A stretch of 14,400 nucleotides of DNA from Candidatus Heimdallarchaeota archaeon (GCA_030668875.1 DAOVER010000065.1:1-14400), one strand, 5' to 3'; shown: positions 11,427-12,347, numbered from the stretch's first letter. The notes: generated by a model not told the origin, from the sequence alone. Translations and numbers: made by a program.

Positions 11427-12347
11427 TTGAAATACGAAGCAACTGTAACTTCTTCTAGTCGGATAACAATTCCAAGATGGATTGTTTTTATTGAACCTGA
11501 AGACGTTATTGAAGGTTTTATCCAAGTTCCAAACGTTGACGCTTCATACCCCTTTGAGAAGAAAGTTTCTGCAACACGTCATATAACTATAGGTTTCATC
11601 AAAATTTTCCTTCCTGATAAAACAATTCCCAAAAGAGTGAACATAACAATCACTAAAGTGAATAAAATGGGTATTGATGATTTCTGTTTTAATCTTGTTA
11701 GTTACAAACAAGACGATACTAACTTTCTAATGAATTTCTCTTCAATCAAACCCAATACTATCATTCAATTCAAGTTAGATACTCTCGTAGAGGAATATGG
11801 AAACACTTATTTTGAAAGACAAGTAGCCGAAGGTAATTATTTTCTTGAACCTATTTTCGAGGAAAAGGATGGAAAATGGATTATTTCTGTCTACATTCCC
11901 GTTCAAGATGATATGGGAGGTATGTTTCCATTTATACTTTTCTTCATTCTTTCTCAGGAATGTTATCAGAAATATATTGTTTCTATGACAAAAATAAAGA
12001 AACTAATACAACGACTATCAAACTGGATATATAATCATGATGATTTAAACAAAGAAAATCTCTCAAAATTCTCTTCTCAATTGCGAGAGATTTTGGAAAA
12101 AGGAACAGGACCTAATTATCTGGAAATGAAAGAAATTTTGAAAATGCCCACACTAGAAAGAGAAATTATTTTAGTTGTTCTTAAGGAGCATAGAAATGGT
12201 GGAATAAGCCTAGAACATCTTGCAAAATACTTACATGAGTCTCAAAAGAATATTTCAGAGGTTATCTCAGAATTAGCCAATAAAGGATATATTAGACAAC
12301 TTAAGGAAAAAGAAGTAACAATCATAGACTCTTTATGGATCATCTAA
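11427..12347 (+). CDS. Putative transcriptional regulator: tandem AbrB-like N-terminus, longin/uDENN-like middle domain, C-terminal MarR-like winged helix
   Basis: YEATVTSSSRITIPRW and FEKKVSATRHITI are AbrB/swapped-hairpin-like repeats. EREIILVVLKEH..GISLEHLAKYLHESQKNISEVISELANKGYI is a wHTH. The middle region fits a beta-beta-alpha-beta-beta-beta-alpha-alpha order. The start is TTG, with an in-frame TGA at 11406-11408 upstream. Confidence 0.7.
   Translation: MKYEATVTSSSRITIPRWIVFIEPEDVIEGFIQVPNVDASYPFEKKVSATRHITIGFIKIFLPDKTIPKRVNITITKVNKMGIDDFCFNLVSYKQDDTNFLMNFSSIKPNTIIQFKLDTLVEEYGNTYFERQVAEGNYFLEPIFEEKDGKWIISVYIPVQDDMGGMFPFILFFILSQECYQKYIVSMTKIKKLIQRLSNWIYNHDDLNKENLSKFSSQLREILEKGTGPNYLEMKEILKMPTLEREIILVVLKEHRNGGISLEHLAKYLHESQKNISEVISELANKGYIRQLKEKEVTIIDSLWII

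Follow-up and report, generated by a model that had tools for sequence, protein, structure and literature searches.

What might longin domains of the FLCN/NPRL2/C9orf72 type, which are central to nutrient signaling and membrane traffic in eukaryotes, have done before eukaryotes existed? This question is raised by a gene in a stretch of DNA of 14,400 nucleotides (nt) from Candidatus Heimdallarchaeota archaeon (GCA_030668875.1 DAOVER010000065.1:1-14400), which was analyzed at its full length and is called the window hereafter. An open frame of 306 amino acids (aa) that begins with TTG occupies positions 11427-12347 of the plus strand of this window, whose G+C content is ~32%. An initial annotation, made from the sequence, had described the product as a fusion of tandem AbrB-like domains, a longin/uDENN-like domain, and a winged helix, and had suggested that it might link GTPase signaling to transcription.

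Based on predicted structures and family alignments, this protein is best placed in the Asgard NPRL2-like longin-winged-helix class, as a variant that is specific to the Heimdallarchaeaceae and that appears to have lost the marks proposed for longins that act as GTPase-activating proteins (GAPs) and to have gained a conserved basic barrel. Longin-winged-helix modules of the NPRL2 type are building blocks of the eukaryotic GATOR1 and folliculin GAPs in nutrient signaling. For the archaeal protein, we tentatively favor the role of a regulatory adaptor, to which we assign a probability of roughly 0.45. In this view, the barrel would touch nucleic acid or a partner that is acidic, and pairing or the binding of partners would fall to the longin-winged-helix part.

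Predicted architecture and distribution of the family

Three domains are predicted by AlphaFold2, namely an N-terminal barrel, a longin-like middle domain, and a C-terminal winged helix. The model of the whole chain, computed with the family alignment, has a mean predicted local distance difference test (pLDDT) score of 83 and a predicted template modeling (pTM) score of 0.61, and residues 80-232 modeled alone reach values of 84 and 0.81. The alignment behind the structure models comprises 19 sequences, and conservation and charge were scored across 15 full-length members. Within the window's protein, Pfam recognizes only the C-terminal winged helix. Co-folding of two copies as a homodimer (alignment A2) yielded a score of 0.00, which counts neither for nor against self-association.

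The full-length family is restricted to the Heimdallarchaeaceae and is roughly single-copy. Of 27 Heimdallarchaeaceae genomes, 25 contain a match to a full-length profile, in most cases a single one, and the window's own genome likewise carries a single copy. The same profile has no match in the 15 genomes that represent the order's other families, and the weak matches seen outside the Heimdallarchaeaceae cover the C-terminal third only. A word-indexed search of public data recovered 23 homologues, and when 1.84 billion cluster representatives were searched exhaustively with HMMER, 18 matched, 15 of them with E <= 1e-10. The homologues that carry names are listed as "hypothetical protein" from Candidatus Heimdallarchaeaceae or Heimdallarchaeota, apart from one labeled as Thorarchaeota and one mislabeled as DnaD. 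Length and all three parts are kept in members down to ~25% identity. When sequencing runs were searched, no RNA runs carrying the gene were listed, and the DNA runs with large shares were marine-sediment metagenomes.

A longin-like middle domain without the proposed GAP marks

In both the whole-chain and the domain-only models, the secondary structure elements assigned by DSSP to the middle of the protein follow the order beta-beta-alpha-beta-beta-beta-alpha-alpha(-alpha), which is the longin order. We compared the domain-only model by VIA-align with each of 48,161 representative PDB chains, without a Foldseek prefilter. The first 15 rows of this wide structure search are all longins, and they represent several eukaryotic and Asgard families. 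Foremost is Lst4, with a score of 10.7 (126 residues aligned, root-mean-square deviation [rmsd] of 3.2), followed by the longin of a Lokiarchaeal roadblock-longin protein (8yqg; 10.4), FLCN (10.2), a GATOR1 chain (8fw5_B; 9.3), C9orf72-SMCR8 (9.1), and FNIP2 and Sedlin (9.0 each). Sec22, Npr2, adaptor sigma/mu subunits, and VAMP7 lie between 8.6 and 8.0. Roadblock-type domains score 7.9 or less, and the first GAF domain appears at rank 44 with a score of 5.9. Foldseek searches against Swiss-Prot models returned C9orf72, DENND10, NPRL2, LST4, and SMCR8. Matches in the ESM Atlas, with template modeling (TM) scores of 0.62-0.68, comprise eukaryotic NPR2, C9orf72, and Njmu-R1, a Heimdallarchaeial Folliculin-like group, and Asgard longin-Arf fusions. 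As modeled, the middle domain is longin-like and is closest to the uDENN/FLCN/NPRL2 sub-type.

Both the three-part architecture and the longin topology put forward in the initial annotation are thus reproduced in the predicted models, the former also by the conserved length of the relatives and the latter by the strand and helix order and the top 15 PDB rows. A PAS- or GAF-like fold, or one with nothing longin-like about it, was considered as an outcome that would speak against this topology, and solved longins proved closer to the model than did roadblock, GAF, PAS, or profilin structures. A second element of that annotation fared differently. The loop "IPVQDDMGG" had been taken as reminiscent of a longin/uDENN signature, but it is kept only in close relatives, and distant members read, for example, "KLQGDFS" or "SIKELV". 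It is therefore not a signature of the family.

Sequence comparisons of the middle domain returned little. The Pfam models NPR2 (PF06218), Folliculin (PF11704), and C9orf72-like gave no match in any of the 19 members, although E values as high as 10 were allowed, and the sole recurring weak Pfam match of this region is TagF_N (E 0.11 in two members). Profiles of the middle domain and of the barrel, searched against PDB sequences, found nothing meaningful, the best match of either being a restriction-methylase fragment with E 0.03. The Pfam NPR2 model was also run over 200 Asgard genomes, where it produced nothing above its cut-off and therefore offered no bridging alignment. It could be argued that the middle domain is not homologous to longins at all and is instead a generic alpha/beta sandwich that AlphaFold has rendered longin-like, in which case the protein would be an orphan, lineage-specific regulator. 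However, the ranking is consistent, with longins in all of the leading rows and both roadblock and GAF domains clearly lower, and the order of strands and helices is exactly that of longins. Moreover, beta5, alpha2-alpha3, and the winged helix are homologous to a family of GP-motif longin-winged-helix proteins that is described below. We consider a look-alike fold to be very unlikely.

A GP motif in the beta1-beta2 loop and an arginine finger have been described for FLCN, NPRL2, SMCR8, C9orf72, and a class of Heimdallarchaeial longins (PMC12290439). In the protein studied here, the beta1-beta2 loop reads "QDDTN", the family consensus is "xxxGN", and there is no GP motif. Within strands beta1-beta5, just two residues are near-invariant, F144 and W151, and neither is an arginine. 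Judging from the alignment, the family is without both of the marks proposed for GAP longins, the GP motif and the invariant sheet arginine.

Relationship to NPRL2 and to a sister family

NPRL2 and NPRL3 (Npr2 and Npr3 in yeast) are longin subunits of GATOR1/SEACIT. They consist of an N-terminal longin domain followed by C-terminal winged helix-turn-helix (HTH) repeats (PMC3747258). When the whole model is used as a Foldseek query, residues 79/81-303 are colinear with residues 1-238 of NPRL2 from human and mouse, 31-271 from fly, and 15-258 from S. pombe, with E values of 3e-5 to 2e-4, and the PDB matches include GATOR1, SEAC, and FLCN-FNIP chains. Publications of 2020-21 covered NPRL2-like longins from Asgard archaea, which are reported to be abundant there and to be fused to prokaryotic signal-transduction domains (bioRxiv 10.1101/2020.10.19.343400). 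The combination of longin and winged helix in Asgard archaea is already known, and only the fused barrel is new. No report of a barrel fused to a longin-winged-helix module was found in the literature searched.

The core of the protein, residues ~86-306, would accordingly be an NPRL2-like module (a longin of the FLCN/NPRL2/C9orf72 type plus a winged helix) to which a barrel has been added N-terminally. It shares with NPRL2, NPRL3, and the Asgard NPRL2-like longins the succession of a longin of this type, helices, and a winged helix, and with the Asgard proteins it also shares the host group. Unlike NPRL2 and NPRL3, it has one winged helix, is much shorter, and carries neither the GP motif nor the sheet arginine nor a Pfam NPR2 match, and its longin is not N-terminal, being preceded by the barrel. 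We know of no Rag/Arf GTPase or DEPDC5-like partner for it.

Given this layout, the protein might be purely a GTPase regulator or platform in the manner of NPRL2 and FLCN, with no role involving nucleic acid. The longin would dock an Arf- or Rag-like GTPase or another NTPase, the winged helix would assemble a complex as in GATOR1, and the barrel would bind peptide or protein cargo as VatN-type barrels do. The fold is indeed closest to the longins of GAPs and of guanine nucleotide exchange factors (GEFs), namely FLCN, Lst4, NPRL2, and C9orf72, the domain layout matches that of NPRL2 (PMC3747258), the neighbors in the ESM Atlas include Asgard longin-Arf fusions, and the organism's own genome encodes GP-motif longin paralogues that would be able to pair with it. 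However, the family is without the GP motif and invariant sheet arginine that have been proposed as marks of GAP longins (PMC12290439), no GTPase gene is a conserved neighbor, and the conserved positive charge of the barrel, together with its AbrB-like "R-(I/V)T(I/V)P ... GD" signature, points to nucleic acid. We find this role somewhat unlikely, and the connection to GTPase signaling suggested at the outset did not find support in the loop, the sheet, or the gene neighborhood.

Weak class-level matches led us to a sister family (alignment A5, e.g., P0043/P0049), whose Heimdallarchaeial proteins of ~250 aa combine a longin with a winged helix. Its members (proteins P0043-P0087; loci L053-L056 and L061-L066) are all publicly labeled "hypothetical". 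Over target residues 163-292, which comprise beta5, alpha2, alpha3, and the winged helix, hhalign joins our protein to this family with a probability of 95.9% (E 5e-9), and on this profile alignment we regard these elements as homologous in the two families. The corresponding comparison of beta1-beta4 is not significant (P 0.27). A likeness noticed by eye between "LMNFSSIKPNTIIQF.LD" in the target and "LMEDMGPQTHINFSDLD" in the sister family was discarded, as it had no support and was out of register with the topology.

In the sister family, an invariant GP follows the first hydrophobic strand, in what we read as the beta1-beta2 loop, and "GPGKIRG", with its arginine, is likewise invariant. 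By sequence, this pair resembles the GP motif together with the arginine finger in the longins noted above (PMC12290439). Scanned against Pfam with E values of up to 10 allowed, the sister family matched winged-helix families only and no longin family. When one sister protein model was compared with the ESM Atlas, the best match of its residues 1-138 was an Asgard cluster with Pfam NPR2 in 19% of its proteins. Domain order and archaeal class are common to both families. The sister family differs in having a basic winged helix, in having no N-terminal barrel, and in where it occurs at full length, being confined to two other families (f6 and f7) of the class, all of whose sampled genomes contain it. 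The GP-longin part alone is found class-wide in paralogues of ~160, 260, and 345 aa, and the window's genome has at least three GP-motif longin paralogues (G000:C19:15756-16091, G000:C40:66806-67033, and G000:C87:2389-2589), which are possible candidates for pairing with the longin-like domain of our protein. Another candidate relative, the 1702-aa protein P0039, was rejected. It is a SpaA-repeat surface protein with 11 matched stretches, and its score is high because repeated weak strand matches inflate it.

A conserved basic barrel and a near-neutral winged helix

The N-terminal domain is modeled as two beta-beta-(alpha)-beta repeats, with strands assigned by DSSP at residues 2-6, 12-14, 27-33, 40-46, 52-54, and 70-79. 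The duplication can also be seen by eye as "S..R-ITIP" versus "S..RHITIG". R12 and R51 are invariant, and an invariant D26 sits in the "PGD" of repeat 1. Among the top Foldseek matches, the sole solved barrel is PhS018 (2glw; probability 1.00, TM 0.68 by target, rmsd 2.9 over 84 columns, E 3e-3). In the ESM Atlas, a 97-aa stand-alone archaeal cluster matches residues 1-80 (TM 0.68, rmsd 2.2), and a feature search of the same resource with the barrel gave no usable match. Comparison of repeat 1 by hhalign with a profile of 21 Heimdallarchaeial AbrB/MazE domains yielded P 6e-5 and a probability of 65% over 22 columns, an alignment that spans "S..R(I/V)T(I/V)P...(I)EPGD.IE". The signals of repeat 2 against the same profile (P 0.03) and of the two repeats against each other (P 0.01) are weak. 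No Pfam family other than PF04014 has matches in at least two members (2 of 15, E 0.046, under the Pfam cut-off), and PF04014 has no match in the window's own protein.

From these models and alignments, the barrel probably belongs to the AbrB/PhS018 group, whose members are termed "cradle-loop" barrels in structural classification. It would share with the AbrB/MazE/SpoVT barrels (PF04014) the "R-(I/V)T(I/V)P ... GD" signature of repeat 1. PhS018 is a RIFT protein with six strands, pseudo-two-fold symmetry, and a GD-box (PMC11258233). This Pyrococcus horikoshii protein is the RIFT prototype, and the predicted barrel would resemble it in its single chain, six strands, pseudo-two-fold symmetry, duplicated beta-beta-alpha-beta unit, and GD-box-like motif. 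In contrast to both PhS018 and AbrB, the barrel is fused to a longin-winged-helix module, and unlike PhS018 it has no significant sequence match to PDB chains.

Conservation and charge distinguish the barrel from the winged helix. The mean fraction of members carrying the majority residue is 0.61 for the barrel, the highest of any domain, compared with 0.48 for the winged helix and 0.43 for its third helix. Eleven of the 21 near-invariant positions are in the barrel, including the symmetric R12 and R51, and the barrel's net charge of +1 to +6 is positive in all full-length members. The net charge of the winged helix averages ~-1, and its third ("recognition") helix is among the least conserved regions scored, with a net charge of -7 to +3. 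A conserved basic helix or wing for reading DNA, together with flanking dimerization helices of the MarR/ArsR type, was not found across the 15 members. The remaining near-invariant residues gather on alpha2 (L193, R196, and W200) and on the last strand (D301 and W304), which hints that the longin helices contact the end of the wing.

The DNA-binding modules proposed in the initial annotation can be revisited with these data. A C-terminal winged HTH at residues ~240-306 is upheld as a MarR/ArsR-like fold that is matched by Pfam HTH_27 (22.5 bits versus a cut-off of 22.2), with MarR, MarR_2, HTH_Crp_2, and others under their cut-offs. Its description as the DNA-binding module of a prokaryotic-style transcription factor is not sustained, given the NPRL2 layout, the approximately neutral charge, and the poorly conserved third helix. 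Since a longin followed by a winged helix is the layout of NPRL2 and NPRL3, there is no need to see in the winged helix a DNA-binding module of the prokaryotic kind. The "tandem AbrB-like" label is apt at the level of the AbrB/PhS018 group, but the swapped-hairpin topology is unconfirmed. The model has six strands, which argues against the eight-stranded swapped-hairpin dimer of AbrB, and the best match is a RIFT barrel.

A classical one-component transcription factor would be another interpretation of these parts and is essentially the view of the initial annotation. The parallel is CodY, a global regulator of Firmicutes composed of a GAF domain and a winged helix. A winged-helix dimer would read an operator, the longin-like domain would sense a ligand or metabolite, and the barrel would make an accessory second contact with DNA or protein. 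CodY is colinear with the model in Foldseek, and its overall plan, in which a helical linker joins an alpha/beta sandwich to a C-terminal winged helix, fits as well as that of NPRL2. In contrast to CodY, however, our protein has no GAF domain, as indicated by the low position of the first such domain in the PDB-wide search. A repeat scan of upstream regions found no convincing operator-like palindrome. We judge a CodY-like function to be unlikely.

Start codon and features of the locus

The features of the gene and its immediate neighbors are collected in Table 1.

Table 1. Features of the barrel-longin-winged-helix gene, its predicted product, and flanking genes in the window
Feature	Position	Strand	Remarks
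Probable full coding sequence	11415..12347	+	310 codons plus stop if the ATA at 11415 starts translation; contains the TTG open reading frame
Shine-Dalgarno-like GGTGA	11404..11408	+	6 nt 5' of the probable ATA start; the TGA within it doubles as the in-frame stop by which the frame is closed upstream
Predicted six-stranded, internally duplicated beta-barrel	11427..11666	+	Residues 1-80; net basic, most conserved domain
Barrel repeat 1			Residues 1-38; "RITIP" motif and GD-box-like "PED" ("PGD" in family consensus)
Barrel repeat 2			Residues 39-80; "RHITIG" motif
Predicted longin-like domain	11682..12101	+	Residues 86-225; from models and structure searches
Predicted longin elements			beta1 86-94, beta2 100-105, alpha1 111-127, beta3 ~139-145 (143-145 by DSSP), beta4 150-160, beta5 166-176, alpha2 177-200, alpha3 209-225
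C-terminal winged helix	12144..12344	+	Residues 240-306; chain ends at the wing; D301 and W304 invariant
Convergent radical S-adenosylmethionine (SAM)/SPASM gene	12348..13433	-	NCBIfam TIGR04084, 381 bits
Two co-directional upstream genes	9736..11347	+	301-aa soluble helical protein and 249-aa polytopic membrane protein; no Pfam/NCBIfam family

The gene probably begins upstream of the TTG codon. The match of the family profile in the window starts at 11415, which is four codons before the TTG. The codon homologous to ATA 11415-11417 is ATT in six relatives, ATG (in "MKLP...") in nine, and GTA and AAG in the two most distant relatives compared, and a GGTG(A) motif lies 5-8 nt 5' of the homologous start codon in most of them. 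In-frame stop codons occur 2-3 codons before the ATA/ATT position in the window and in four relatives (L012-L015), and therefore only this start can yield the conserved N-terminus. Apparent non-ATG starts are seen in the window (11404-11429) and at loci L002 and L011-L015. Judging from this conservation, the true start is probably ATA 11415-11417, with initiation at AUA or AUU in the family. Public gene calls of close relatives are 240-280 aa long and are missing the barrel, because the gene seems to begin at ATT or ATA. Thus, the locus also exposes an annotation problem, in that an apparent ATT/ATA start costs the public records their N-terminal domain.

Genomic neighborhood

The stop codons of our gene and of the convergent radical SAM/SPASM gene abut as TAATTA (12345-12350), with zero intergenic bases, and the transcripts of the two genes must therefore overlap or end within each other. 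This tail-to-tail pair is kept in three genera, among which the barrel-containing protein is 24-40% identical and the radical SAM protein ~60% identical. A regulatory tie between the two genes might be possible, although any such tie would be weak.

On the other side, the genes for the 301-aa and 249-aa proteins were rejected as family-wide obligate partners, as they adjoin the gene only within the window's genus. The 249-aa gene (10598-11347, plus strand) overlaps the 301-aa gene by 44 nt, and its product has ~4-6 hydrophobic spans by hydropathy and an "HQLCH" motif. No small-GTPase gene is present in the window or as a conserved neighbor in the loci of relatives compared, and in one relative an Arf-like gene lies ~5.5 kb from the homologue. 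PADLOC returned generic winged-helix and radical-SAM matches only and no known defense system.

Farther upstream, positions 2-3766 (plus strand) encode a tandem pair of beta-helix (NosD/Beta_helix) proteins that carry bacterial TSP3 repeats, and positions 5126-8188 (plus strand) encode a 1020-aa subtilase with PKD/Big_13 domains. These genes form a secreted/surface-protein neighborhood.

Proposed role and implications

The regulatory adaptor that we favor would be a soluble protein of low abundance and low copy number, translated from a weak AUA/AUU/AUG start behind a Shine-Dalgarno-like motif. Its conserved basic barrel, in which R12 and R51 come just before a "(I/V)T(I/V)P"-type strand, would make the contact with nucleic acid or an acidic partner. 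AbrB presumably has a DNA-contacting arginine at the matching spot. The longin-winged-helix part would then serve as a dimerization or partner-binding platform and not as a GTPase-activating enzyme.

Several considerations weigh against this proposal. DNA binding, partner binding, and oligomeric state are all putative, and all fold assignments come from predicted models built with only 19 sequences. None of the sequence methods tried joins residues 86-162 to longin families, and the AbrB sequence signal is weak, with its hhalign probability of 65% and its Pfam matches under the cut-off. To our knowledge, PhS018-type and VatN-type barrels are not DNA binders, and the barrel may therefore bind peptide or protein instead. 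Conversely, many true DNA-binding winged helices are not strongly basic, such that the winged helix could still read DNA. With regard to the neighboring radical SAM gene, its convergent orientation means that the pair is no operon, and in genus g3 the pair is broken, with the two genes ~470 kb apart.

A more specific possibility is that this family-wide, single-copy protein physically joins an AbrB-like barrel that binds DNA to a longin-winged-helix module of the NPRL2 type and thereby acts as a regulator that connects a longin platform directly to the chromosome. We hold this to be rather doubtful. If it were true, some forerunners of the NPRL2 class in archaea would have worked in gene regulation, and NPRL2 and NPRL3 could have kept their winged helices as relics of DNA-associated ancestors.

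Regardless of which partner the barrel contacts, a predicted longin-winged-helix module that seems to be without the proposed catalytic marks and to have acquired a conserved basic barrel has been kept in single copy through one Heimdallarchaeial family. The predicted soluble protein of 35 kDa would offer a tractable test case for whether an archaeal longin-winged-helix protein binds DNA, RNA, a GTPase, or another longin.

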